Source: Dehalococcoidia bacterium
GTDB taxonomy: Bacteria > Chloroflexota > Dehalococcoidia > UBA2979
NCBI GenBank assembly: GCA_965262725.1
Contig: OZ253555.1
Span: 1,376,001-1,440,000 of the forward strand
DNA: 64,000 nt
Direction: 5' to 3'
This document shows positions 878-51,124 of the stretch, in pieces. A model generated the notes under the pieces. It was not told where the DNA came from and ran no database searches. It saw only the letters and a program-made list of their open reading frames with translations. The position numbers and the translations under genes were made by a program. The first letter of the stretch is position 1; every line of letters starts with the position of its first letter.

Positions 878-1663
878 CTAGTGCTCCTCGAAGAGGAGTC
901 CCATCCCGGCGATCTGGTCCTGGATACCGAGCGTCCTCAGCGTGTGCCAGGCGTTCGCGATGTTGATCGGGATCACGGGCTTGCCGAGCTGGTGCTCGAG
1001 CGTCGGGAAGATGTCGACGGCCGAGAGGTTCGTCCCCACCTGGACGATCGCGTCGACGCCGGCTGCTTCGAGCTCGCGCACGGCCTCGAATACCTCGGTG
1101 CGCGGCGTGTGCGCGATCGAGGTAGCGGTGGCGCACCTCAGGCCAACGATCTTGCGCACGTCGAAATCCATGTCGCCGAAGAACGCGCGCACGTTCTCGT
1201 CACCGATCGGCTGGTAGGGCGTGAGGACGCCCAGTCGCCGCGCGCCGAACGTGTGGAGCGCGTCGACGCACGCGGCCGCGCCGGTCGTGAGCGGGATGTC
1301 TCCGATCTGCTCCTTGACGCGGCGGATGAACTCCTCGTTGCCGGCGAGGCCGCCCCAGAAGGTCTCGGCGCTCATGCCCATCATCACGGCGGTGGGTTCG
1401 CAGGTGAGCAGGTCACGTACGGCGATCGGGATTTCCGTGCGGATGAACTCGAGGAAGGCCAGGAAGGCATCATCCGTGTCGAGGGCCGGTGACTCCACGA
1501 AGAAGCGGCCGGGGTGCCAGGTCACGCCGGGGAGTGAGATCTTGCCGAGGTCGTACTCGACAGCCGTGTTGGTCGAAGGGATCACCACCCCGACGCGCGC
1601 GCGGTAGCCGATGTAGTTCTCAAGCGGCGCGTCCATCGTCCCGGCATCGGCTACGGTCGTCAT
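878..1663 (-). CDS. Maleate isomerase/arylmalonate decarboxylase (Asp/Glu racemase) family protein
   Basis: RVGVVIPSTNTAVE, LGVLTPY, GKPVIPIN; ATG 1663 overlaps the upstream stop. Confidence 0.8.
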   Translation of the reverse strand: MTTVADAGTMDAPLENYIGYRARVGVVIPSTNTAVEYDLGKISLPGVTWHPGRFFVESPALDTDDAFLAFLEFIRTEIPIAVRDLLTCEPTAVMMGMSAETFWGGLAGNEEFIRRVKEQIGDIPLTTGAAACVDALHTFGARRLGVLTPYQPIGDENVRAFFGDMDFDVRKIVGLRCATATSIAHTPRTEVFEAVRELEAAGVDAIVQVGTNLSAVDIFPTLEHQLGKPVIPINIANAWHTLRTLGIQDQIAGMGLLFEEH

Positions 1664-2385
1664 CGCGTCTCTCCGATCCTCCGAGTAACCGGCGTGGCGG
1701 ACCCGGCGCCTCCCTCGGCTTCGCCGGCGCGGCTCCGGGCAATCATGGCGGCCACGGCCTCCGTCGCCACCACGAGGTCGGCGTACTTCTGCTCCATGTC
1801 GAACAGGTTTGCCTCGTGGGGTCCGAGCGCGCGGTCGCCGACGCAGTCCCGCACGACGACGGCGCGCAGATTGTAGCTCATGGCATCGACGACGCTGGCC
1901 CGCACGCAACCCGACGTCGTGGCACCGGTCACGACCAGCGTGTCGGCGCCACGGCCGAGGAGCCACGGTGCGAGATCGGTGCCGAAGAAGGCCGAGGGCT
2001 GCGTCTTCCGGATCACGTGCTCGCCGGGCTCGGGCGTCAGCTCGGCGACGATCTGACTCCCCTCCGCCTCCTCTGTGAGGTCGAGGAGTCCCGGCGCCTT
2101 CTGTGTGAAGACGCCGGCGTCGGAGCCGTCGCTCGCGTAGACGACGCGCGTGAAGGCCACCGGGAGACCGGCCCGCCGAGCGGCCTCGAGCACGGGCCGC
2201 GTGTTGGCGATTGCCTCGGCGATGTTGCCCCCGCCGAAGCGCGCGGGGTCGGCGAACGCGTTAGTGAAGTCGACCACGAGCAGTGCAGGGCGATCGCCGA
2301 AGCCGACCGGGCCTCCGAGCCCCTGACGCCGGTAGAGCGCGAGGTCCGCATCGGTCGCGGGCGGTCGCCCGTCCGTCCCCTTCAC
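1660..2385 (-). CDS. Isochorismatase-family amidohydrolase (N-carbamoylsarcosine amidase/maleamate amidohydrolase-like)
   Basis: ALLVVDF, KTQPSAFFGT, GATTSGCVRASVVDA; GTG start overlaps the upstream TGA. Confidence 0.85.
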   Translation of the reverse strand: MKGTDGRPPATDADLALYRRQGLGGPVGFGDRPALLVVDFTNAFADPARFGGGNIAEAIANTRPVLEAARRAGLPVAFTRVVYASDGSDAGVFTQKAPGLLDLTEEAEGSQIVAELTPEPGEHVIRKTQPSAFFGTDLAPWLLGRGADTLVVTGATTSGCVRASVVDAMSYNLRAVVVRDCVGDRALGPHEANLFDMEQKYADLVVATEAVAAMIARSRAGEAEGGAGSATPVTRRIGETR

Positions 2386-3584
2386 GCGATCTCTCGCTCG
2401 CGCTCGAGGGAGACGATCATCGAGGAGCCGCGCAGGAACGCGAGCGCCGCCTCCGGAGTCTCCGCGGTGCGCCTCCATTCGTCGTGTCGCTCCCGCCTGA
2501 GGCGGGGATCGGTCTCGCGCATCAGCTCCCGGTTCCGGACCGTCGCCGCCTGCACGTGCTCGATGCAGACCGTGCGGCGCTGCCGCTCGTAGCGATCGAG
2601 CAGCGAGCCGTCCGCCCCCCGCCAGATCTCGATGAGCTTCTTGGCCAGGTTCACCGCGTCGTGCACGCTCCCGTTCATCCCCATCCCGCCGAGCGGGTTG
2701 TTGACGTGGGCGGCGTCGCCGACGAGCAGGATGCGGCCGAGCCGGTAGCGCTCGGCGACGCGCTGGTGCACGCGGTAGAGCGATCGGTGGGTGACCTCGT
2801 AGGGCTCCGATCGCGGGAGTACGCTCTGCATGCGGCGCTGCACGCTCGCGTCGCCGGTGAGGTCCCCGTCGTCGTGCTCGGGACCAGTGGGGAAGAGCAC
2901 GCGCCAGAAGTAGCGCGTGCGGAGCAGGACCAGCCACTCCTCGGGGTCCGAGACGTAGTTGACGAAGCTCAGGTCCTCGATCTCCTCCCGGAAGTCGAAG
3001 GGTGTCGTCAGCACGAGGAAAAACTCCGGCAAAGTGAGCCCCTGGAACTCGATGCCCTGCGAGATGCGGACGAGTGAGGCGGCACCGTCGGCGCCTATCA
3101 GGTAGCGCCCGCGCTCGGTCCGCTCCTGCATGTCCTCGAAGCGGATGAGCGCGGAGACGCCGCCCCCGTTCTGGTGCGCCCCCACCACGGACTCGCCGAA
3201 GCGGACCTCGCAGCCGCCGCTCGCCACCAGGCGGTCGAGCAGGATCTGCGTGAACTTCCACTGCTCGGTCTGAACGCGATACGGATGGGAGGTGAGGCCG
3301 GCGAGGATCGAGAGGTCGAAGGTGGCGATCGGTCCGGTACGCCGGTCGCGGTACTGCCAGGTGGGGGCGATGAGCCCCTGTTCCATCACGCGCTCGGTGA
3401 CACCGCCGAGTTCGTCGAGCATGTCGAGCGTCGGCGGATGGAAGGTCGAGGCTCGCGGATCGATGGGGAGGCTCTGCTCGGCCTCGAAAACCGTGACGGG
3501 GATGCCGGCGTCCACGAGGAACGCGGCGGCGCTCAGCCCCGCCGGTCCGGCCCCGGCTATGAGCACGCGGTCCTCGTCGGCCAT
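2382..3584 (-). CDS. FAD-dependent monooxygenase (class A, aromatic hydroxylase-like)
   Basis: GAGPAGL, GADGAAS, GDAAHVNNPLGGMGMN. Confidence 0.9.
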   Translation of the reverse strand: MADEDRVLIAGAGPAGLSAAAFLVDAGIPVTVFEAEQSLPIDPRASTFHPPTLDMLDELGGVTERVMEQGLIAPTWQYRDRRTGPIATFDLSILAGLTSHPYRVQTEQWKFTQILLDRLVASGGCEVRFGESVVGAHQNGGGVSALIRFEDMQERTERGRYLIGADGAASLVRISQGIEFQGLTLPEFFLVLTTPFDFREEIEDLSFVNYVSDPEEWLVLLRTRYFWRVLFPTGPEHDDGDLTGDASVQRRMQSVLPRSEPYEVTHRSLYRVHQRVAERYRLGRILLVGDAAHVNNPLGGMGMNGSVHDAVNLAKKLIEIWRGADGSLLDRYERQRRTVCIEHVQAATVRNRELMRETDPRLRRERHDEWRRTAETPEAALAFLRGSSMIVSLEREREIA

Positions 3585-13969: not shown

Positions 13970-14587
13970 CTAGTGTCCCGATTCAGGGATGCGCTCTAGA
14001 TATCCGGCGAGGTTGGTGTGTCCCGAAGTCGAAGGGCGGGTGACGTGATGACGTAACCGGTCTGGAGACATGCTCGTCGTTGCCAGCCGGTGCGAGTCCG
14101 GCACGGGTAACTGTCAGGAGGCCCGTTAGCAGGTCGGCGGCGCGGACGGGAAACGGTCCACGTCGAAGCCCGACGTCAAGAGCCCTATCAGGGGGAGCAA
14201 CCAAGCGGTCCGCAGCATCAAGCGAAGCCTGCCGCGTCGTTAACGGATAGTGGAGGAGCCGAGCCCGGCAATTCAGGGCGAAGGCCATGGACGAGGTGAA
14301 GATCCTGAATGCGCGTTGCGCTGCAGCCTCAAGGAACCTCCCGGCGTAAGGGGCGTGGAACGTTTGGAAGGTAGCGACGGGAACGGGAGAAGCCCTCCCC
14401 GGCCCGGCACCCTGCGAGATGGTGTCGGAGCGAGGTGCCCTATAACCGGTCAAAGCCGGGAAGTGGGCAGCTAGCCGGAAGGGTGACGGAGGGGGTCGTA
14501 GTACCGCTTGAGCCGGACGGACAACACAACCGCCGGTGATGGGAAGGACCCCTGCTTTGCTCACGCGTGGGGAGTAGGGATGAATCG

Positions 14588-15131
14588 GTGAGTGCCCAAG
14601 CGGCTAACTCCATCCAAGACAAGGTCCGAACACTACAACGCACGCTTTACCGGGCGGCCAAGGCCGACCCCAATAGACGCTTTCATGCGCTCTACGACAA
14701 GGTTTATCGCAGAGACATTCTGGAGCGCGCGTGGGAGCAGGTGCGTCGCAATCGCGGCGCAGCCGGTATCGACGGCGTCACGCTCGCCGAGGTCGAGCGC
14801 TACGGCGTGGAGCGCCTGCTGGATGAACTGGCCACGGAACTGAAGGAGGGAAGATACCGGGTGCAGCCGAGCCGCCGGGTCTGGATACCCAAGCCCGGTC
14901 GGTCGGAAGAGCGCCCGCTCTCGATTCCTTCGGTCCGCGACCGCATCGTGCAGGCGTCGCTGAAGCTCGTGACGGAGCCGGTCTTCGAGGCCGACTTCCT
15001 GCCATGCAGCTTCGGCTTCCGCCCGAAGCGTTCGGCCCATGACGCCCTGCAGGTCCTCATTGACGAGGCGTGGCGGGGCAGGCGGTGGGTAGTGGAGACG
15101 GACATCGCCTCGTGTTTCGAGTCGATACCGC
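14588..15131 (+). CDS. ltrA: Group II intron RT/maturase, exon 1 (RT0 to RT3)
   Basis: LERAWEQV..NRGAAGIDG, RPLSIPSVRDRIVQ, SFGFRP, DIASCFESIP; start GTG 14588 (or 14567). Confidence 0.9.
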
Positions 15132-15732
15132 GTGCGTCCGGAAGTCGAAGGGGTGGTGACGTGATGACGTGACCGGTCCGGAGACATGCTCGTTGCTGCC
15201 AGCCGGTGAGAGTCCGGCACGGGTAACTGTCAGGAGGCCCGTTAGCAGGTCGGCGGCGTGGACGGGAAACGGTCTGCGTCGAAGCCCGACGTCAAGAGCC
15301 CTATGAGGGGGAGCAAACGTGCGGTCCGCAGCATGACGCGAAGTCTGCCGCGCCGTGAGACTCGCCTGTCTATTGACAGGACCAAGGAGGAGCCGAGCCC
15401 GGGTGGTCAGGGCGAAGGCCATGGACGAGGTGAAGATCCTGGAATGCAGCCTCAAGAAACCTCCCGGCGTATGGGACGTGGAACGTACGGAAGGTAGCGA
15501 CGGGAACCGGAGAAGCCCTCCCCGGCCCGGCACCCTGTGAGAGGGCGTCGGAGCGAGGCGTCCTATAACCGGTCAGAGCCGGGAAGTGGACAGCCAGCCG
15601 GAAGGGTGGCGGAGGGGGTCGTAGTACCGCTGGAGCCGGACGGACAACATAACCGCCGGTGATGGGAAGGACCCCTACTTTGTCCGTGCATGTTGCTGGG
15701 GGTGTGGACTGGTGAGTGCCCCTCGGGGCTAG

Positions 15733-16940
15733 GGGTTCTCTGAACAGGTCGCCGCGTCGTTACTGGAGCACATGCACACTCCGATGACTATATGCGATCA
15801 TGGCACTCCTCCGGGAAAGGGGAGCGCTGCCATGCATCAGCCGACATTCGCGAGAGTCGAGTTCGAGCGGGATGGCTACAAGACGCGCCGCCAGAAGTTC
15901 CTCGAACGGCTGGATGGCCTCGTCCCGTGGCAGAGGTTCGAAGCAGCCATCGAGCCCCACTACCCGAAACCGGGCCGCGGGCGGAGGCCCTACCCGCTCT
16001 CCGTGATGCTGCGCATCCATACCGTGCAACTCTGCTACAACCTCAGCGACCCCGGCATGGAGGATCTGCTCCACGAGGCCGAGTCGGTGCGAGCCTTTTG
16101 CTTCCTCACGCTCTCCGAGCCCATCCCCGACGAGACGACGATCCTCAACTTCCGGCACCTGCTCGAGCGCCACTCCCTGGGTAGCAGGATCCTCCAACTC
16201 ATCAACGAGCACCTCACGAGCAAGGGATTGAAGCTGAGCGAGGGCAGCATCGTGGATGCGACCATCATCTCGGCGCCATCGTCGACGAAGAATCGCGGGC
16301 GGGCGCGGGACCCGGAGATGCATCAGACCAAGAAGGGGAAACAGTGGTTCTTCGGGATGAAGCTGCACATCGGCGCCGACAGGGATACTGGACTGGTCCA
16401 CAACTTCACGACCACGCCTGCGAACGTGTCGGACGTGTCTGAGACGCACCGCCTGCTGCACGGCGAGGAAGCCGAGGTCTACGGCGACGCCGGGTACCGG
16501 GGCGTGCAGAAGAGACCCGAGAACGCGGACTCCAGGGTCAAGGACTGGAACGTGGCGATGCGCCCGGGCCTCCGGCGTGCGCTCGACCCGGAGAGTCCTG
16601 AGGCCGTCGAGGAGAAGCGGAAGGCATCGGTGCGAGCGCTGGTGGAGCACCCGTTCTACAGCGTGAAGCGGCGCTTCGGCTACGCCAAGGTGCGGTACCG
16701 GGGTCTCTTCAAGAACCACGAGCGGTGTGCGGTCTTGCTGGGGTTCCACAACCTGCTCACCGCGAAGCCGCACCGTGCCTGACCGTGGGTGGAGTGCGCC
16801 CTCCCCGCCCCACACGGGGCGAGGAGGGGAGCCACAGGGGCCCGCGAGGGGGCGGATATGACCACTGTCATCGGGAATCCGCCTGAGAGCGCCTGACCGC
16901 GGCGAAACTGGGTCGCTAGACCCACCTGATCAGACTTGCC
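15733..16940 (+). mobile_element. IS5-family element (1208 bp) in domain IV of the inner intron
   Basis: CTAG duplicated (15729-32, 16941-44); single CTAG at the equivalent site in copy 2; imperfect terminal IRs. Confidence 0.95.
15832..16782 (+). CDS. IS5-family transposase
   Basis: IPDETTILNFRHLLE, IVDATII, DPEMHQTKKGKQWFFGMK, YGDAGY, VEHPF. Confidence 0.95.
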   Translation: MHQPTFARVEFERDGYKTRRQKFLERLDGLVPWQRFEAAIEPHYPKPGRGRRPYPLSVMLRIHTVQLCYNLSDPGMEDLLHEAESVRAFCFLTLSEPIPDETTILNFRHLLERHSLGSRILQLINEHLTSKGLKLSEGSIVDATIISAPSSTKNRGRARDPEMHQTKKGKQWFFGMKLHIGADRDTGLVHNFTTTPANVSDVSETHRLLHGEEAEVYGDAGYRGVQKRPENADSRVKDWNVAMRPGLRRALDPESPEAVEEKRKASVRALVEHPFYSVKRRFGYAKVRYRGLFKNHERCAVLLGFHNLLTAKPHRA

Positions 16941-17205
16941 CTAGCAACCACTTGGTAGGGTTCGAGGCTCTCCGCACATGCTGTACCGGCTGGCCAAGGC
17001 ACGACCCACGTTGTGGGGAGCGCTGCATGCCATCTGGTGAAGGGCATCGGTGAGCCGGATGAGGGAGAACCTCACGTCCGGTTCGATGTGGCAGGGGCTG
17101 GAGACGGACGCTGCTATGGCCGTGGAGTTGGGCACCACCGGGAAACCGGCTTGGAACTGATGCGCCACCGCCTACGGCTCGCACCGCGCCAGCCCCTGAC
17201 CCTAC

Positions 17206-17999
17206 ACGACCGTCTGATGACGGCCGTCGAGGAACGGATATGCGACCGCAATCTCCTGAAGCTGGTACGGGCGATGCTGCGTGCCGGTGTGATGGAGTCG
17301 GGGGTCGTGCAGCACAGCGCGACGGGTACGCCGCAGGGCGGGGTGATGTCCCCGCTGCTGGCCAATGTCTACCTGCACCGGTTGGACCGGGACTGGGAGG
17401 CGAAGGGTGATGGCGTGCTGGTGCGCTATGCGGATGACCTCGTGGTGCTCTGCCGGAGCCGGGAGGAAGCGGAGCGGGCGTTGGCCCTGCTGCGTGACCT
17501 GCTGGGTGAGCTCGGACTGGAGCTCAAGGCGGAGAAGACGCGCATCGTGCACCTGCGGGAGGGAGGCGAGGGGCTGGAGTTCCTCGGCTTCGAGCATCGC
17601 TGGGTACGTGCGAAGCGCAACAAGAATATCCAGTTCCTCGCACGCTGGCCCTCACGGCGAGCGATGCAGCGGGCGCGGGACCGCATCCGTGAAATCACGG
17701 CGCGGTTGCGTCTGCTGCTGAGTCCCCGGCAGGTCGTGGAGGAAGTCAATCGCTACCTCCGCGGCTGGATGAGCTACTTCCGCTACGGCAACTCGGCGAG
17801 GGCGTTCGACGTCCTGCACTGGTTTGCCATGTGGAGACTCAAACTCTGGCTGGGGAAGCGGTTGCGTTGGCGGCGACGCCATCGCGGGCACCCGTTTCCC
17901 GTCGCCGACCGTCTGGGGCTCATCTCGCTAGCTGGACAGCGCGTCGTGGCACCACGGCCATATCGACCGTGGCGGGGCACCCCGCATGCCGCCCGGTGA
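17206..17999 (+). CDS. ltrA: Group II intron RT/maturase, exon 2 (RT3-7 plus domain X, no endonuclease)
   Basis: GTPQGGVMSPLLANVYLH, RYADD, FLGF, LRGWMSYF. Confidence 0.92.
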
Positions 18000-18159
18000 A
18001 GGGCATCGGTGAGCCGGATGAGGGAAAACCTCACGTCCGGTTCGAGGCGGCAGGGGCTGGAGACGGACGATGCTACGGCTGTGGAGATGGGCGCCACCGG
18101 GAAACCGGCCTGGCAATATGCGCCACCGCCTACGGCTCGCACCGCGCCAGCCCCTGACC

Positions 18160-19212
18160 CTACTCAAGGATCTGGTCCGCGGACTTGTGCCAGATGAAGG
18201 GCCTCGGATTCTCGTTCCAGCTGGCGACCCACATCTCCACTGAGCGGATCAGATCAGGGACGCTATGGTGCGTGCCGCGCCGGAGCCACTTGCTGGTGAG
18301 CTCTGCAAACCAGCGCTCCACGAGGTTCATCCAGGAGCTGTAGGTCGGCGTGAAATGGAAGGTGAAGCGGGGATGGCGCTGGAGCCAGCGCTGGATGGCG
18401 GGCGTGCGGTGCGTGGAGACGTTGTCGAGCACGACATGCACCGCCAGCTCACGGGGAACGCTTTGGTCGATGAGGGCGAGGAACTGCTGGAACTCCCGAG
18501 CCCGGTGCCGGGGGGTCATCTCCGTGATCACGCATCCCGAGGCGACATCGAGCGCCGCGTAGAGGTTCGTCGTGCCGTGACGGATGTAGTCGTGCGTCTG
18601 GCGGGCGGGGACGCCGGGCATCATCGGCACCGTCGGCGCGGTGCGGTCGAGTGCCTGGATCTGGGTCTTCTCGTCCACGCACAGCACAACCGCCGCGTCG
18701 GGCGGGTTGAGATAGAGCCCGGCCACGTCGCGCACCTTGTCGATGAACTGCGGGTCGGGCGACAGCTTGAAGCTCTCCACGAGGCGCGGCTTCAGGCCGA
18801 AGGCGCGCCAGATCCTGGAGATCCCCGACTGCGACATCCCGAGCGCGGCTGCCATCGATCGGGTCGACCAGTGCGTCGCGTTGGGAGGCTGCTCCTCCAG
18901 CGTCGTGACGATCACCGCTTCCACCTGTGCATCGGCGATCGTGCGCGGCGCCCCGGGGCGCGGCTCATCCTGTAGCCCATCGAGCCGCCCCTGCGCAAAG
19001 CGCCGGCGCCACTTGCCGACGGTGACCGGATGGCAATCGAGCGCCGCGGCGATCGCTTTATTCGATGTCCCCTCGGCCGCTGCCAGGACGATGCGACAGC
19101 GCAGCGCCAGCGCCTGGGCCGATGTCGGCCGGCGCGCCCACCGCTCCAGCGTCTCACGCTCCTCGTCGCTCAGGACGATCGCGACCGTCGGCCGTCCGAT
19201 TCGGATGCTCAT
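18160..19212 (-). CDS. IS630 transposase, last ~15 aa lost through antisense intron insertion
   Basis: CVDEK, VLDN, WMNLVERWF; ends QILE* versus QILDNLAGYLERIPESGH* in the intact copy. Confidence 0.92.
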   Translation of the reverse strand: MSIRIGRPTVAIVLSDEERETLERWARRPTSAQALALRCRIVLAAAEGTSNKAIAAALDCHPVTVGKWRRRFAQGRLDGLQDEPRPGAPRTIADAQVEAVIVTTLEEQPPNATHWSTRSMAAALGMSQSGISRIWRAFGLKPRLVESFKLSPDPQFIDKVRDVAGLYLNPPDAAVVLCVDEKTQIQALDRTAPTVPMMPGVPARQTHDYIRHGTTNLYAALDVASGCVITEMTPRHRAREFQQFLALIDQSVPRELAVHVVLDNVSTHRTPAIQRWLQRHPRFTFHFTPTYSSWMNLVERWFAELTSKWLRRGTHHSVPDLIRSVEMWVASWNENPRPFIWHKSADQILE

Positions 19213-19297
19213 GACACTCCAGAGTCTGCCCCATGGGGCAAAACCCCGCTGTGCCACCATACCCGTTATCTGTCGCTATTACGAATCAGGACACTAG

Positions 19298-20505
19298 GGG
19301 TTCTCTGAACAGGTCGCCGCGTCGTTACTGGAGCACATGCACACTCCGATGACTATATGCGATCATGGCACTCCTCCGGGAAAGGGGAGCGCTGCCATGC
19401 ATCAGCCGACATTCGCGAGAGTCGAGTTCGAGCGGGATGGCTACAAGACGCGCCGCCAGAAGTTCCTCGAACGGCTGGATGGCCTCGTCCCGTGGCAGAG
19501 GTTCGAAGCAGCCATCGAGCCCCACTACCCGAAACCGGGCCGCGGGCGGAGGCCCTACCCGCTCTCCGTGATGCTGCGCATCCATACCGTGCAACTCTGC
19601 TACAACCTCAGCGACCCCGGCATGGAGGATCTGCTCCACGAGGCCGAGTCGGTGCGAGCCTTTTGCTTCCTCACGCTCTCCGAGCCCATCCCCGACGAGA
19701 CGACGATCCTCAACTTCCGGCACCTGCTCGAGCGCCACTCCCTGGGTAGCAGGATCCTCCAACTCATCAACGAGCACCTCACGAGCAAGGGATTGAAGCT
19801 GAGCGAGGGCAGCATCGTGGATGCGACCATCATCTCGGCGCCATCGTCGACGAAGAATCGCGGGCGGGCGCGGGACCCGGAGATGCATCAGACCAAGAAG
19901 GGGAAACAGTGGTTCTTCGGGATGAAGCTGCACATCGGCGCCGACAGGGATACTGGACTGGTCCACAACTTCACGACCACGCCTGCGAACGTGTCGGACG
20001 TGTCTGAGACGCACCGCCTGCTGCACGGCGAGGAAGCCGAGGTCTACGGCGACGCCGGGTACCGGGGCGTGCAGAAGAGACCCGAGAACGCGGACTCCAG
20101 GGTCAAGGACTGGAACGTGGCGATGCGCCCGGGCCTCCGGCGTGCGCTCGACCCGGAGAGTCCTGAGGCCGTCGAGGAGAAGCGGAAGGCATCGGTGCGA
20201 GCGCTGGTGGAGCACCCGTTCTACAGCGTGAAGCGGCGCTTCGGCTACGCCAAGGTGCGGTACCGGGGTCTCTTCAAGAACCACGAGCGGTGTGCGGTCT
20301 TGCTGGGGTTCCACAACCTGCTCACCGCGAAGCCGCACCGTGCCTGACCGTGGGTGGAGTGCGCCCTCCCCGCCCCACACGGGGCGAGGAGGGGAGCCAC
20401 AGGGGCCCGCGAGGGGGCGGATATGACCACTGTCATCGGGAATCCGCCTGAGAGCGCCTGACCGCGGCGAAACTGGGTCGCTAGACCCACCTGATCAGAC
20501 TTGCC
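19298..20505 (+). mobile_element. IS5-family element, copy 2
   Basis: Same sequence as copy 1; CTAG at 19294-97 and 20506-09. Confidence 0.95.
19397..20347 (+). CDS. IS5-family transposase
   Basis: Translation identical to 15832-16782. Confidence 0.95.
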   Translation: MHQPTFARVEFERDGYKTRRQKFLERLDGLVPWQRFEAAIEPHYPKPGRGRRPYPLSVMLRIHTVQLCYNLSDPGMEDLLHEAESVRAFCFLTLSEPIPDETTILNFRHLLERHSLGSRILQLINEHLTSKGLKLSEGSIVDATIISAPSSTKNRGRARDPEMHQTKKGKQWFFGMKLHIGADRDTGLVHNFTTTPANVSDVSETHRLLHGEEAEVYGDAGYRGVQKRPENADSRVKDWNVAMRPGLRRALDPESPEAVEEKRKASVRALVEHPFYSVKRRFGYAKVRYRGLFKNHERCAVLLGFHNLLTAKPHRA

Positions 20506-40428: not shown

Positions 40429-41602
40429 GTGTCCTGATTCGTAATAGCGACAGATAACGGGTATGGTGGCACAGCGGGGTTTTGCCCCATGGGGCAGACT
40501 CTGGAGTGTCATGAGCACCCGAATCGGACGGCCGACGGTCGCGATCGTCCTGAGCGACGAGGAGCGTGAGACGCTGGAGCGGTGGGCGCGCCGGCCGACA
40601 TCGGCCCAGGCGCTGGCGCTGCGCTGTCGCATCGTCCTGGCAGCGGCCGAGGGGACATCGAATAAAGCGATCGCCGCGGCGCTCGATTGCCATCCGGTCA
40701 CCGTCGGCAAGTGGCGCCGGCGCTTTGCGCAGGGGCGGCTCGATGGGCTACAGGATGAGCCGCGCCCCGGGGCGCCGCGCACGATCGCCGATGCACAGGT
40801 GGAAGCGGTGATCGTCACGACGCTGGAGGAGCAGCCTCCCAACGCGACGCACTGGTCGACCCGATCGATGGCAGCCGCGGTCGGGATGTCGCAGTCGGCG
40901 ATCTTCAGGATCTGGCGCGCCTTCGGCCTGAAGCCGCACCTCGTGGAGAGCTTCAAGCTGTCGCCCGACCCGCAGTTCATCGACAAGGTGCGCGACGTGG
41001 CCGGGCTCTATCTCAACCCGCCCGACGCGGCGGTTGTGCTGTGCGTGGACGAGAAGACCCAGATCCAGGCACTCGACCGCACCGCGCCGACGGTGCCGAT
41101 GATGCCCGGCGTCCCCGCCCGCCAGACGCACGACTACATCCGTCACGGCACGACGAACCTCTACGCGGCGCTCGATGTCGCCTCGGGATGCGTGATCACG
41201 GAGATGACCCCCCGGCACCGGGCTCGGGAGTTCCAGCAGTTCCTCGCCCTCATCGACCAAAGCGTTCCCCATGAGCTGGCGGTGCATGTCGTGCTCGACA
41301 ACGTCTCCACGCACCGCACGCCCGCCATCCAGCGCTGGCTCCAGCGCCATCCCCGCTTCACCTTCCATTTCACGCCGACCTACAGCTCCTGGATGAACCT
41401 CGTGGAGCGCTGGTTTGCAGAGCTCACCAGCAAGTGGCTCCGGCGCGGCACGCACCATAGCGTCCCTGATCTGATCCGCTCAGTGGAGATGTGGGTCGCC
41501 AGCTGGAACGAGAATCCGAGGCCCTTCATCTGGCACAAGTCCGCGGACCAGATCCTTGACAACCTCGCCGGATATCTAGAGCGCATCCCTGAATCGGGAC
41601 AC
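40429..41602 (+). mobile_element. IS630-family element, intact, intron-free allele
   Basis: CTAG at 40426-29 and 41602-05; terminal IRs tagtgtcc.gattc. Confidence 0.95.
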
Positions 41603-46428: not shown

Positions 46429-46684
46429 GCGGGGCTGACGTGATCGCGCCTAACGCTCATGCTGGTCGTGGAGGAGCGAGCATGTGTCGATCGCCAGGGT
46501 CATTGATCCACGCGTCGCCACGGTCATTAGACCACCCGGGACGCCGGTAGGCGGCTTGATATCAGTGAGCGTCTAGTGTCCTGAATTGGAAATGCGATTG
46601 AGATATCCGGTGAGGTTGGTGTGTCCCGAAGTCGAAGGGCGGGTGACGTGATGACGTAACCGGTCTGGAGACATGCTCGTCGTT

Positions 46685-48104
46685 GAGTAGCGTCCCAGCA
46701 AGTGGTGTCACAGGCGGGGAGACGGTCTCCGCAGGGGGACCTACTACCGACCACGGTGCCCATGCAGGTGGACGTAAGAGACCACCGCATCATCCTTCAC
46801 GAAGTTATGACGAACGTGGAGGAGGACGACGGTGGTCAGAGAGAGCGTGGACGTGTTGGAACTGCTCCGCAAGCAGGCATCGGGAGCTGACCTCGATTTC
46901 CTGCGCGAAGCGGTGGCTGTGCTCGCCGAGGCGGTCATGGACCAGGAGGTCTCGGCGCAGGTCGGCGCCGGCTACGGTGAGCGCAGCGAGATGCGCACCA
47001 CCCGGCGCAACGGCTACAGGCAAAGACGCTGGGACACGCGGGTGGGCAGCATCGACCTGCAGATCCCGAAGCTCCGCCAGGGGTCCTACTTCCCGGCGCT
47101 GCTCGAGCCCCGGCGCCGCTCAGAGCGCGCCCTGCTAGCCGTCGTCCAGCAGGCGTACGTGGAGGGCGTCTCCACACGCCGCGTCGACGACCTCGTGCGC
47201 TCGCTCGGCTGCGAGGGCATCTCCAAGAGCCAGGTCTCGCGTATCTGCTCGGAGCTCGACACGGTCGTCACAAGTTTCCTCGGCCGGCCCCTGGACTCCG
47301 GCCCCTACCGATACCTCTGGCTCGACGCGCTCACCCAGCGGGTGCGCGAGGAGGGCCGCATCGCCCAGGTGAGCGTCGTCGTCGCCACCGCGGTCAACGT
47401 GGAGGGGAAGCGCGAGGTGCTGGGCATCGACGTCGGTACCAGCGAGGACGGGGCCTTCTGGCTGGCATTTCTCCGCGGCCTCGTAGCACGAGGGCTCTCC
47501 GGCGTGGAGCTGGTGACCTCCGACGCCCACCAGGGCCTGAGGGGAGCGATCGCGACCGTCTTCGGCGGCGCCTCCTGGCAGCGCTGCCGTACCCACTTCA
47601 TGCGGAACCTGCTCACACGCGTGCCGAAGAGCGCCGAGGCGCTGGTGGCGACGACCGTGCGCACCATCTACCAGCAGCCCTCGGCCTCCGAGGTGCACGC
47701 CCAGCACACGCGGGTCGTGGAGCAGCTCGGTGCGCGCTTCCCGCAGGCCGCGGCGATGCTCGCCGACGCCGCGGAGGAGATCCTGGCGTTCACGGCCTTC
47801 CCGGTGGCGCACTGGCGTCAGGTCTGGTCGAACAACCCCCAGGAGCGCCTCAACAAGGAGATCCGCCGGCGCACCAACGTCGTCGGCATCTTCCCCAACC
47901 GCTCAGCGGTCATCCGGCTCATCGGTGCGGTGCTCTCCGAGCAGCACGACGAGTGGGCCGTGGGGCGGCGCTACATGACGATGATGACGCTGCTCGCCCC
48001 GCCGGGGAGTGAGCTCACGCCGGGCAAGGAGGTGCTGCTGCAGGCTGCCGGCTAAGAACTGATAAGGATGGTGCGCAGTGACACCACTTGCCGGGACGTG
48101 ACCC
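46685..48104 (+). mobile_element. IS256-family element in domain I of the outer intron
   Basis: 26-bp imperfect IRs (..cgtccc.gcaagtggtgtca); 6-8 bp direct repeat (c)gtcgtt(g); absent from copy 1. Confidence 0.92.
46832..48055 (+). CDS. IS256 transposase
   Basis: RNGYR, GVSTRRV, YLWLDA, SDAHQGL, WQRCRTH, ERLNKEIRRR. Confidence 0.95.
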   Translation: MVRESVDVLELLRKQASGADLDFLREAVAVLAEAVMDQEVSAQVGAGYGERSEMRTTRRNGYRQRRWDTRVGSIDLQIPKLRQGSYFPALLEPRRRSERALLAVVQQAYVEGVSTRRVDDLVRSLGCEGISKSQVSRICSELDTVVTSFLGRPLDSGPYRYLWLDALTQRVREEGRIAQVSVVVATAVNVEGKREVLGIDVGTSEDGAFWLAFLRGLVARGLSGVELVTSDAHQGLRGAIATVFGGASWQRCRTHFMRNLLTRVPKSAEALVATTVRTIYQQPSASEVHAQHTRVVEQLGARFPQAAAMLADAAEEILAFTAFPVAHWRQVWSNNPQERLNKEIRRRTNVVGIFPNRSAVIRLIGAVLSEQHDEWAVGRRYMTMMTLLAPPGSELTPGKEVLLQAAG

Positions 48105-48616
48105 GTCGTTGCCAGCCGGTGCGAGTCCGGCACGGGTAACTGTCAGGAGGCCCGTTAGCAGGTCGGCGGCGCGGACGGGAAACGGTCCACGTCGAAGCCC
48201 GACGTCAAGAGCCCTATCAGGGGGAGCAACCAAGCGGTCCGCAGCATCAAGCGAAGCCTGCCGCGTCGTTAACGGATAGTGGAGGAGCCGAGCCCGGCAA
48301 TTCAGGGCGAAGGCCATGGACGAGGTGAAGATCCTGAATGCGCGTTGCGCTGCAGCCTCAAGGAACCTCCCGGCGTAAGGGGCGTGGAACGTTTGGAAGG
48401 TAGCGACGGGAACGGGAGAAGCCCTCCCCGGCCCGGCACCCTGCGAGATGGTGTCGGAGCGAGGTGCCCTATAACCGGTCAAAGCCGGGAAGTGGGCAGC
48501 TAGCCGGAAGGGTGACGGAGGGGGTCGTAGTACCGCTTGAGCCGGACGGACAACACAACCGCCGGTGATGGGAAGGACCCCTGCTTTGCTCACGCGTGGG
48601 GAGTAGGGATGAATCG

Positions 48617-49160
48617 GTGAGTGCCCAAGCGGCTAACTCCATCCAAGACAAGGTCCGAACACTACAACGCACGCTTTACCGGGCGGCCAAGGCCGACCCC
48701 AATAGACGCTTTCATGCGCTCTACGACAAGGTTTATCGCAGAGACATTCTGGAGCGCGCGTGGGAGCAGGTGCGTCGCAATCGCGGCGCAGCCGGTATCG
48801 ACGGCGTCACGCTCGCCGAGGTCGAGCGCTACGGCGTGGAGCGCCTGCTGGATGAACTGGCCACGGAACTGAAGGAGGGAAGATACCGGGTGCAGCCGAG
48901 CCGCCGGGTCTGGATACCCAAGCCCGGTCGGTCGGAAGAGCGCCCGCTCTCGATTCCTTCGGTCCGCGACCGCATCGTGCAGGCGTCGCTGAAGCTCGTG
49001 ACGGAGCCGGTCTTCGAGGCCGACTTCCTGCCATGCAGCTTCGGCTTCCGCCCGAAGCGTTCGGCCCATGACGCCCTGCAGGTCCTCATTGACGAGGCGT
49101 GGCGGGGCAGGCGGTGGGTAGTGGAGACGGACATCGCCTCGTGTTTCGAGTCGATACCGC
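48617..49160 (+). CDS. ltrA: Group II intron RT, exon 1 (copy 2)
   Basis: Translation identical to 14588-15131. Confidence 0.9.
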
Positions 49161-50022
49161 GTGCGTCCGGAAGTCGAAGGGGTGGTGACGTGATGACGTG
49201 ACCGGTCCGGAGACATGCTCGTTGCTGCCAGCCGGTGAGAGTCCGGCACGGGTAACTGTCAGGAGGCCCGTTAGCAGGTCGGCGGCGTGGACGGGAAACG
49301 GTCTGCGTCGAAGCCCGACGTCAAGAGCCCTATGAGGGGGAGCAAACGTGCGGTCCGCAGCATGACGCGAAGTCTGCCGCGCCGTGAGACTCGCCTGTCT
49401 ATTGACAGGACCAAGGAGGAGCCGAGCCCGGGTGGTCAGGGCGAAGGCCATGGACGAGGTGAAGATCCTGGAATGCAGCCTCAAGAAACCTCCCGGCGTA
49501 TGGGACGTGGAACGTACGGAAGGTAGCGACGGGAACCGGAGAAGCCCTCCCCGGCCCGGCACCCTGTGAGAGGGCGTCGGAGCGAGGCGTCCTATAACCG
49601 GTCAGAGCCGGGAAGTGGACAGCCAGCCGGAAGGGTGGCGGAGGGGGTCGTAGTACCGCTGGAGCCGGACGGACAACATAACCGCCGGTGATGGGAAGGA
49701 CCCCTACTTTGTCCGTGCATGTTGCTGGGGGTGTGGACTGGTGAGTGCCCCTCGGGGCTAGCAACCACTTGGTAGGGTTCGAGGCTCTCCGCACATGCTG
49801 TACCGGCTGGCCAAGGCACGACCCACGTTGTGGGGAGCGCTGCATGCCATCTGGTGAAGGGCATCGGTGAGCCGGATGAGGGAGAACCTCACGTCCGGTT
49901 CGATGTGGCAGGGGCTGGAGACGGACGCTGCTATGGCCGTGGAGTTGGGCACCACCGGGAAACCGGCTTGGAACTGATGCGCCACCGCCTACGGCTCGCA
50001 CCGCGCCAGCCCCTGACCCTAC
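49161..50022 (+). mobile_element. ORF-less group II intron (862 nt), uninterrupted
   Basis: GUGCG...ccctAC with DV; removal gives S-I-P-H-D-R-L-M. Confidence 0.95.
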
Positions 50023-50816
50023 ACGACCGTCTGATGACGGCCGTCGAGGAACGGATATGCGACCGCAATCTCCTGAAGCTGGTACGGGCGATGCTGCGTG
50101 CCGGTGTGATGGAGTCGGGGGTCGTGCAGCACAGCGCGACGGGTACGCCGCAGGGCGGGGTGATGTCCCCGCTGCTGGCCAATGTCTACCTGCACCGGTT
50201 GGACCGGGACTGGGAGGCGAAGGGTGATGGCGTGCTGGTGCGCTATGCGGATGACCTCGTGGTGCTCTGCCGGAGCCGGGAGGAAGCGGAGCGGGCGTTG
50301 GCCCTGCTGCGTGACCTGCTGGGTGAGCTCGGACTGGAGCTCAAGGCGGAGAAGACGCGCATCGTGCACCTGCGGGAGGGAGGCGAGGGGCTGGAGTTCC
50401 TCGGCTTCGAGCATCGCTGGGTACGTGCGAAGCGCAACAAGAATATCCAGTTCCTCGCACGCTGGCCCTCACGGCGAGCGATGCAGCGGGCGCGGGACCG
50501 CATCCGTGAAATCACGGCGCGGTTGCGTCTGCTGCTGAGTCCCCGGCAGGTCGTGGAGGAAGTCAATCGCTACCTCCGCGGCTGGATGAGCTACTTCCGC
50601 TACGGCAACTCGGCGAGGGCGTTCGACGTCCTGCACTGGTTTGCCATGTGGAGACTCAAACTCTGGCTGGGGAAGCGGTTGCGTTGGCGGCGACGCCATC
50701 GCGGGCACCCGTTTCCCGTCGCCGACCGTCTGGGGCTCATCTCGCTAGCTGGACAGCGCGTCGTGGCACCACGGCCATATCGACCGTGGCGGGGCACCCC
50801 GCATGCCGCCCGGTGA
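50023..50816 (+). CDS. ltrA: Group II intron RT, exon 2 (copy 2)
   Basis: PQG, YADD and domain X identical to copy 1. Confidence 0.92.
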
Positions 50817-51124
50817 AGGGCATCGGTGAGCCGGATGAGGGAAAACCTCACGTCCGGTTCGAGGCGGCAGGGGCTGGAGACGGACGATGCTACGGCTGTG
50901 GAGATGGGCGCCACCGGGAAACCGGCCTGGCAATATGCGCCACCGCCTACGGCTCGCACCGCGCCAGCCCCTGACCCTACTCAAGGATCTGGTCGGTGGT
51001 CTTGTGCGAGATGAAGCGCATCCGGTGCTCGTTCCAGTTGCGACCCAAGCCTCCACTGGGCGGACCAAGCCTGCGAGGCTCGGTGCGATTGTTTTCAGCA
51101 TTTGCAACTCGGGACACTAGCGCG

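Follow-up and report, generated by a model that had tools for sequence, protein, structure and literature searches.

An ORF-less group II intron lodged in the reverse transcriptase genes of its close relatives in a Dehalococcoidia genome

A 64,000-nt stretch of a Dehalococcoidia bacterium genome (GenBank assembly GCA_965262725.1, contig OZ253555.1, positions 1,376,001 to 1,440,000 of the forward strand; hereafter the window) carries two group II twintrons, in each of which an 862-nt intron without an open reading frame (ORF) lies inside the reverse transcriptase (RT) gene of a longer, related intron. The outer intron, termed intron A, measures 2,074 nt, ends in GTGTG...CCCTAC and has its domain IV (DIV) ORF broken after nt 1116. 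Throughout the genome, every RT gene of intron A and of the related lineage B is split by the same inner intron at the same codon. The interpretation we favour, with a probability of roughly 0.65, is that the inner intron splices in vivo, either alone or with pre-existing intron A RT (RT-A), and that the RT/maturase read from the restored ORF serves both introns.

Anatomy of the nested introns and the restored RT frame

At the first locus, four levels of nesting were resolved, with host DNA containing an IS630-like insertion sequence (IS), which contains intron A, which contains the inner intron, which in turn contains an IS5-like element. The features, including exon-binding sites (EBS), intron-binding sites (IBS) and intron domains (DI to DVI), are given in window positions, as are all coordinates below that are not marked as genome positions:

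13972-14015, no strand assigned: end of the IS630-like element, 5' exon of outer copy 1 (IBS2 TATCCG, IBS1 GGTTG)
14016-15131, plus: outer intron A copy 1, 5' segment (RF02003; Pfam RVT_1 1-82), holding DI-DIII, the start of DIV and RT codons 1-188 (ORF from 14567)
14244-14249 and 14269-14273: EBS2 CGGATA and EBS1 CAATT of outer intron A copy 1
15132-15732, plus: inner ORF-less intron, nt 1-601, 100% identical to 49161-49761 (RF02003, 102.8 bits)
15359-15364 and 15403-15407: EBS2 GACTCG and EBS1 GTGGT of the inner intron in copy 1
15733-16940, plus: IS5-like element of 1,208 nt, inserted into what is left of DIV in the inner intron; CTAG is duplicated relative to the clean copy
16941-17205, plus: inner intron, nt 598-862, 100% identical to 49758-50022, holding the last part of DIV, then DV, a long DVI whose bulged A is at -7, and CCCTAC as the 3' end
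17206-18163, plus: outer intron A copy 1, 3' segment (Pfam RVT_1 90-204 and GIIM; RF00029), holding RT codons 189-452 with their stop (ending at 17999), DV at about 18011-18044 and a long DVI that reaches 18163
18164-19296, minus: remainder of the IS630-like element, with a transposase of 366 codons (Pfam DDE_3 and HTH domains)

The second locus contains the uninterrupted inner intron, and the window also holds one unoccupied home site of the outer intron:

46574-46618, no strand assigned: end of an IS630-like element, 5' exon of outer copy 2, a flank common to 8 other copies
46619-46685, plus: first 67 nt of outer intron copy 2 (100% match by blastn to nt 1-67 of the outer intron)
46686-48103, plus: IS256-like element in DI of outer copy 2 (Pfam Transposase_mut, E 9.6e-132), with an 8-bp duplication, CGTCGTTG, equal to outer nt 60-67 (blastn overlap)
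48104-49160, plus: outer intron copy 2 from nt 60 to nt 1116, with RT codons 1-188 (ORF from 48596)
49161-50022, plus: inner ORF-less intron of 862 nt in clean form, belonging to the 24 full-length copies that are identical
49388-49393, 49432-49436, 49869-49902 and 50016: EBS2, EBS1, DV and branch A of the clean inner intron
50023-50980, plus: outer intron copy 2, 3' segment (C-terminal RT part, DV, DVI), 100% identical to 17206-18163
50981-51119, no strand assigned: short IS630-like remainder, 3' exon of copy 2, ending ...GGGACACTA (homologous 3' flank, TCAAGGATCTGGTC)
41543-41575, minus: empty outer-intron home site in an intact IS630-like copy, an exact match to the joined exon pattern

The boundaries of the inner intron were fixed by 28 genomic copies with differing flanks, by an uninterrupted homologue in a genome of the same genus (G003) and by a joint in DNA of sequencing run X7 that skips the 862 nt. 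Those of the outer intron were fixed by 11 exact empty sites, in which ATATCCGGYGAGGTTG is followed directly by TCAAGGATCTGG, in IS630-like elements of the same genome; the flank ...ATATCCGGYGAGGTTG is common to all 12 copies of outer intron A. The coordinates and junctions that an earlier note had proposed from the letters of this stretch were right to the base. Its description of the loci as a group II twintron, with an inner intron that is an ORF-deleted relative of the outer one, was borne out by the Rfam, identity and Pfam evidence given below, and needs the addition that 15132-17205 carries the 1,208-nt IS5-like insert and that the other outer copy is split by the IS256-like element.

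Joining position 15131 to 17206 in silico gave a 452-codon frame that reads ...DIASCFESIP-H-DRLM... across the junction and contains the YADD motif (VRYADDLVV). The junction peptide, the motif and the lack of an endonuclease had all been anticipated in the earlier note, which had put the length at about 445 residues; this last figure has to be corrected to 452 codons. The insertion point lies between codons 188 and 189, within the RVT_1 domain, with the N-terminal fragment matching Pfam RVT_1 profile positions 1-82 and the C-terminal fragment positions 90-204 followed by GIIM. Pfam gave nothing beyond GIIM in the 263-aa C-terminal fragment, and no endonuclease (HNH) domain was found; as judged from this domain content, the outer RT belongs with the endonuclease-less intron-encoded proteins (IEPs). 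The best PDB matches of the RT are group II intron RTs (7UIM, 5.8e-27; 6AR1, 1.1e-25) and its best plasmid tblastn matches are Streptomyces and Rhodococcus ltrA genes at 56-61% identity, and neither set of matches assigns an intron class. Purifying selection on the RT was indicated by ratios of nonsynonymous to synonymous substitution (dN/dS) of 0.26 between A and the G003 homologue and 0.27 between A and B.

The inner intron begins with GTGCG at 49161 and ends with CCCTAC at 50022, and the same ends were found in all 28 copies. RF02003, the Rfam family for group II DI-DIV (gathering score 49), matched it with 102.8 bits at 15200-15336 and 49229-49365, and matched the outer intron with 95.3 bits at 14084-14220 and 48113-48249. 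RF00029, which covers DV and DVI (gathering score 40), matched the outer intron with 41.5 bits at 18009 and 50826, this match ending 87 nt short of the true 3' end because DVI is very long. In a search with an E-value threshold, the same family matched the inner intron at 49867-50022 with 37.5 bits (E 1.4e-5), which is under the gathering score; the match spans the full model (1-77) and its last base is 50022.

Consensus folding (alifold) of DI-DIII from seven sequences (inner, A, B and homologues from G003, from G018 of another genus and from G008 of the same family) gave 157 pairs, 21 of them with compensatory changes, and folding of DV-DVI from five homologues gave 54 pairs, of which 10 were compensatory, four of these in DV itself. 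The basal helix of DVI leaves an A unpaired 7 nt before the 3' end in the fold of the five homologues. Together with the Rfam matches, these folds support the six-domain structure that the earlier note had expected of the inner RNA, as they do the intron ends and DV that it had recognised. DVI, at about 118 nt (18047-18163; 49905-50022), far exceeds the Rfam consensus and forms a long irregular helix with compensatory changes in the five homologues.

Identity between inner and outer introns is 86% for the first 551 nt and 89% for the final 197 nt. The inner intron lacks about 1.3 kb of the RT ORF body and keeps the first 551 nt, about 30 nt around the start region of A and the last 200 nt or so, including the ORF end. 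By this comparison, the inner element derives from an A-like intron through deletion of the ORF, its ribozyme being complete.

The inner intron's copy number, target sites and strand bias

In the whole genome, 28 copies of the inner intron were found, 24 of which are full-length and 100% identical to one another and four of which have an interruption or a slight truncation. According to where they lie, the 28 divide into 15 at home sites in RT genes, one second tandem copy and 12 at ectopic sites. The 15 home sites belong to 12 copies of intron A and three of lineage B, which is about 80% identical to A in nucleotide sequence and 77% in the amino acids of the RT. All 15 are split at the same codon, following ...GAGTCGATACCGC, with the inner intron in the orientation of the outer one.

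A genome search for inner-free outer introns and for inner copies at other sites, as the earlier note had proposed, thus returned no inner-free A or B RT gene (0/15 genome-wide) and the 12 ectopic copies. Likewise, no empty inner home site was found in the genome with up to four mismatches in 23 nt, compared with the 11 exact empty sites of the outer intron. Five of the 12 A copies are clean twintrons of 2,936 nt, one has a 1-nt deletion outside the ORF, one carries the tandem inner copy and five contain IS insertions; in nine of the 12, once the inner intron is taken out in silico, the frame runs through 452 codons to its stop. The tandem consists of two identical inner introns in direct succession with no exon between them (genome positions 549500-550361 and 550362-551223, within region 548300-552300), an arrangement that implies re-homing into an occupied site, where the +1 base is G and not A.

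The target preference of the inner intron could be followed through its exon-binding loops, which are two hypervariable loops between conserved stems. At the RT home site, inner EBS2 (GACUCG) and EBS1 (GUGGU) pair at 11 of 11 positions with CGAGUC (-14 to -9) and ACCGC (-5 to -1), and in the same alignment columns CGGAUA and CAAUU of intron A pair with UAUCCG and GGUUG of the IS630 exon. The loops were picked after the sites had been seen, and the independent check is the agreement across other lineages, in which the same loop register fits the own 5' exons of A, B and the G003, G018 and G008 homologues (EBS1 in 6/6 lineages, EBS2 clearly in 5/6). These predicted pairings show that the exon-binding sites of the inner intron have been retargeted to the DNA of a conserved RT motif, ...CFESIP/H..., with the slash marking the insertion point.

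The 12 ectopic sites score 8 to 11 of 11 for the same pairing, and 11 of them reach at least 9, compared with 3.8% of 200,000 random genomic positions. They have in common TCGAG, located around -15 to -11, and, from -4 to -1, C-Y-R-C, which is the motif predicted from G.U-tolerant pairing to the inner EBS loops. Four of the ectopic copies interrupt ordinary genes in sense orientation (genome positions 1822597, 1853597, 3058071 and 317969), and the frames of these genes close over the junction. The genes split in this way encode an LRR/cadherin-domain protein of about 1,400 aa, an ABC-2 permease, a DUF429 protein and an RNase T/ExoX-like exonuclease, and in the last two the Pfam profile positions run on over the split. 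A fifth ectopic copy lies in an RT gene of the intron family C described below (genome positions 1521918-1526026), at ...IYESGY/YGFSHGF. Taken together, the identical copies, the 13 different target sequences, the tandem re-insertion and the insertions in ordinary genes point to a recently mobile hyperparasite whose burst appears to have been very recent.

The orientation of the ectopic copies follows the replichores defined by GC skew in 11 of 12 cases, being plus from 0.54 to 1.96 Mb and minus at 0.29-0.38 and 3.06 Mb. Such a bias is expected because endonuclease-less introns prime from replication forks, as described in the part of a review that deals with their mobility (PMC4424553). The cumulative skew has its minimum at about 0.40 Mb, is flat from 0 to about 0.45 Mb and reaches its maximum at about 2.51 Mb, leaving the position of the origin uncertain. 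Outer home sites lie in the skew-favoured orientation in 10 of 12 occupied and 5 of 11 empty cases, which with the uncertain origin is suggestive only. The orientations of the introns switch near the turning points of the skew.

A different identity for the inner element, as an IS, a miniature inverted-repeat transposable element (MITE) or an assembly duplication, was tried and rejected, and its probability is negligible. Nothing specific speaks for it; the minimum free energy (MFE) fold of the whole 862 nt was barely better than those of shuffled sequences (z -2.29), a measure that is uninformative for a large multi-domain RNA. It is refuted by the Rfam D1-D4 and DV/DVI matches, by the GUGCG...AC ends of the 28 copies, which come with neither target duplication nor inverted repeats, and by the EBS/IBS matches at 13 different target sequences. 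Moreover, in run X1, probably from a source-like sample, depth was about 215-240 for the outer-only parts and about 500 or more for the inner parts, which fits 12 versus 28 copies and speaks against an assembly artefact.

Splicing, inner-free relatives and the source of the maturase

According to the favoured reading, an A-like intron lost its ORF, kept its ribozyme as the 862-nt derivative and became retargeted to RT-motif DNA. Intron A homes into the end of IS630-like elements, and the inner intron has retrohomed into every A and B RT gene, once twice in tandem, and retrotransposed to the 12 look-alike ectopic sites. Splicing of the inner intron would restore the RT-A ORF, and RT-A would be the most likely maturase and reverse transcriptase for both introns. 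[quoted passage not shown] Since no uninterrupted A or B RT gene remains, complete RT-A is translatable only from inner-spliced RNA, which is in keeping with the dependence proposed in the earlier note. Because the DIV ORF that holds the inner intron is looped out, the outer ribozyme does not depend on prior splicing of the inner one, and the composite twintron could move as one unit.

A self-gating mechanism built on this dependence is plausible, and is put forward here tentatively. The inner intron would be an obligate gate on its own helper, its splicing being boosted by the RT whose gene it blocks, so that a positive-feedback, burst-prone switch would set the retroelement activity of both partners, and self-splicing at a low level would perhaps restart it. 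New IS630 sites would then be reached by the composite twintron as a unit, and this would account for the finding that 0/12 outer A copies are inner-free despite 11 empty outer sites.

Inner-free forms of the outer intron were found outside this genome. In G003, the outer intron occurs without the inner one, and the site, TTCGAGTCGATTCCGC followed directly by ACGACCGT, lies in the uninterrupted frame CFESIPHDRLM; in G008, several copies have abutting RT halves. Two contigs of the DNA-type run X7 connect 49159 with 50022 and skip exactly 862 nt at a depth of 254, and by these contigs the inner-free form exists as DNA in another population. No inner-free joint was present among 55 contigs of run X1, though contigs drop rare variants. 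Of the words sampled from the twintron stretch, half or more occur in each of 18 runs, which come from several studies. By contrast, exact-pattern scans with a degenerate 36-nt 5'-junction pattern returned no match in genome contigs or in JGI metagenome contigs, and an inner-specific 39-mer had no exact match in genome contigs; the window's own genome may have been outside these scans.

Several observations weigh against the favoured reading. Both window twintrons are additionally broken by IS elements, with intact twintrons located elsewhere in the genome; the IS hits extend to five of the 12 A copies, and all three B copies have further insertions. No spliced RNA joint was found in metatranscriptome X19 or in X20, a run guessed to be RNA, in both of which the RT exons are uncovered. 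The inner sequence there amounts to one 263-nt contig (49312-49574) and one 179-nt contig (49624-49802), with 0 differences and a depth of about 3, which could be DNA carry-over, and to short DV look-alikes with 2-3 mismatches; it is no basis for judging transcription, splicing or habitat. The identity of the copies dates the burst as recent without showing that it outlasted the last invasion of an RT gene. Finally, as detailed below, a possible second RT source is present in the genome.

An alternative is a burnt-out system, in which the inner intron expanded at a time when uninterrupted RT genes were left, RT supply ended with the last invasion and the remaining relics merely look young. The absence of any uninterrupted RT gene (0/15), the lack of an RNA junction in two RNA-type runs that barely cover the locus, the many IS-hit copies and the inability of identical copies to reveal selection after the burst are all compatible with it. 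The tandem insertion at 549500-551223, however, represents homing into a site that was already occupied, 24 copies are without any substitution, and every ribozyme feature that was tested is kept in the inner intron. Group II introns generally self-splice or are spliced by a maturase, and an intact ribozyme would accordingly be expected to come out of the transcript. We regard a burnt-out system as unlikely.

The possible second RT source is a third, unrelated intron family, C (about 1.92 kb; an example lies at genome positions 2475900-2478000), in which the N- and C-terminal RT parts are contiguous at 12 places; nine of these copies are full-length at no less than 85% identity to the nested copy described next, and three are split in the 5' part. 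Open frames of about 495-500 codons were confirmed at the three places inspected. One family C intron of 1,923 nt (GTGCG..., genome positions 734423-736345) lies in the terminal loop of DV of an inner intron that is itself within a lineage B RT gene (region 732500-737500), making a three-deep nest. Family C could in principle supply an RT/maturase, and the inner intron might then be spliced and mobilised in trans by a foreign helper, with the A and B RT genes serving as a favoured landing site and no functional coupling between the partners. The contiguous RT parts, the open frames and the family C copy inside an inner copy would suit such an arrangement. On the other side, RT-C is only 36-41% identical to RT-A, and blastn gave no similarity between family C RNA and inner intron RNA; the latter is 86-89% identical to that of intron A, with the surroundings of the A start codon among the parts kept. 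The cross-acting IEPs of the precedent that was tested by experiment, moreover, were 84-100% identical to each other (PMC2882425). A foreign helper is thus considered improbable, more so than a burnt-out system, and RT-A remains the preferred candidate for the protein serving both introns.

Known nested introns, wider meaning and side observations

The arrangement itself is already known, and the present genome adds a complete and apparently recent example. RmInt1 of Sinorhizobium meliloti is an endonuclease-less group II intron with an IS630-family home site and a replication-strand bias; unlike the elements described here, it is not a twintron. Nested group II introns in Methanosarcina acetivorans were reportedly the subject of a 2003 paper by Dai and Zimmerly (RNA 9:14), going by its title. 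The precedents in cyanobacteria and Methanosarcina to which the earlier note had appealed do exist (PMC2882425; PMC4424553). In the M. acetivorans nests, as summarised in the relevant part of a review, introns home into the ORFs of related introns, up to five introns are nested and no host gene takes part (PMC4424553). The nests found here are by comparison mostly two-deep, with one three-deep, are dominated by a single inner element at 28 copies and are accompanied by ectopic insertions in host genes.

The closest parallel is Thermosynechococcus elongatus, in which ORF-less TeI3 lies in the IEP ORF of TeI4 and the TeI4c IEP splices and mobilises both (Mohr, Ghanem and Lambowitz 2010; PMC2882425). 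According to the sections of that study on these twintrons, the two systems have in common ORF-deleted derivatives at one conserved site in the IEP ORF of a relative, identical inner copies and many copies per genome; introns that also target an insertion sequence; and, in T. elongatus, one intron ORF that is hit by an IS. In the cyanobacterium, the inner intron lies between the first two ATGs, a placement that allows IEP production from the second ATG even if the inner intron is not spliced, and in two introns the ORF is continuous. Here, the inner intron lies within the RT domain (RVT_1 82/90), 15 of 15 RT genes are occupied and the escape through a second ATG is absent; full translation of the RT domain therefore needs splicing, a stricter dependence than in T. 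elongatus. The host is in this case a bacterium with 70.6% G+C, and trans-mobilisation, which was shown experimentally in T. elongatus, is in the present system inferred.

A further twintron, T.e.I7/I8 of Trichodesmium erythraeum, undergoes sequential splicing in vivo with the inner intron removed first, according to the part of the report that treats its processing (Pfreundt and Hess 2015; PMC4649490). The same source describes both of its introns as distantly related, each with its own IEP ORF, and as interrupting a host protein gene. Unlike T.e.I8 or T.e.I7, the inner intron studied here has no ORF; it is closely related to the outer intron, whose RT it splits.

ORF-less group II introns that depend on a shared, trans-acting RT/maturase are a favoured model for the step from mobile to spliceosomal introns. 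The genome described here offers a natural test system for this step, with one helper lineage in which all RT genes are split, 24 identical parasites and 12 fresh ectopic insertions, and a comparison is possible since the uninvaded RT gene persists in close relatives and in a metagenomic population. Testable questions include the self-splicing of the parasite, the gating of helper expression, and escape or resistance at a homing site that lies in an essential RT motif. Annotation pipelines will list such loci as paired RT pseudogene fragments.

In G018, the homologous intron (G018:C24:28800-33700, locus 1264-3530) has an insertion of about 2.3 kb elsewhere in the RT ORF, at a position that corresponds to nt 143/144 of the 3' segment of A.

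The IS elements of the window showed some further features. The minus-strand ORF of the IS630-like transposase at the first locus now stops at a TAG provided by the antisense of the intron 3' end (18160-18165), and its former last codons (about 10) are found across the intron, at 13983-14015. The IS630-like host of copy 1 is full-length, whereas that of copy 2 (46574-46618 plus 50981-51119) totals about 184 nt and is a miniature, transposase-less element; around the empty site at 41543-41575, an IS630-like transposase was matched by tblastn at genome positions 1416463-1417560. The IS5-like transposase ORF at 15772-16782 (Pfam DDE_Tnp_1 and DUF772) has an identical counterpart at 19337-20347, and the two copies of this element (15733-16940 and 19298-20500) both lie at CTAG, the second adjoining the end of the IS630-like element.

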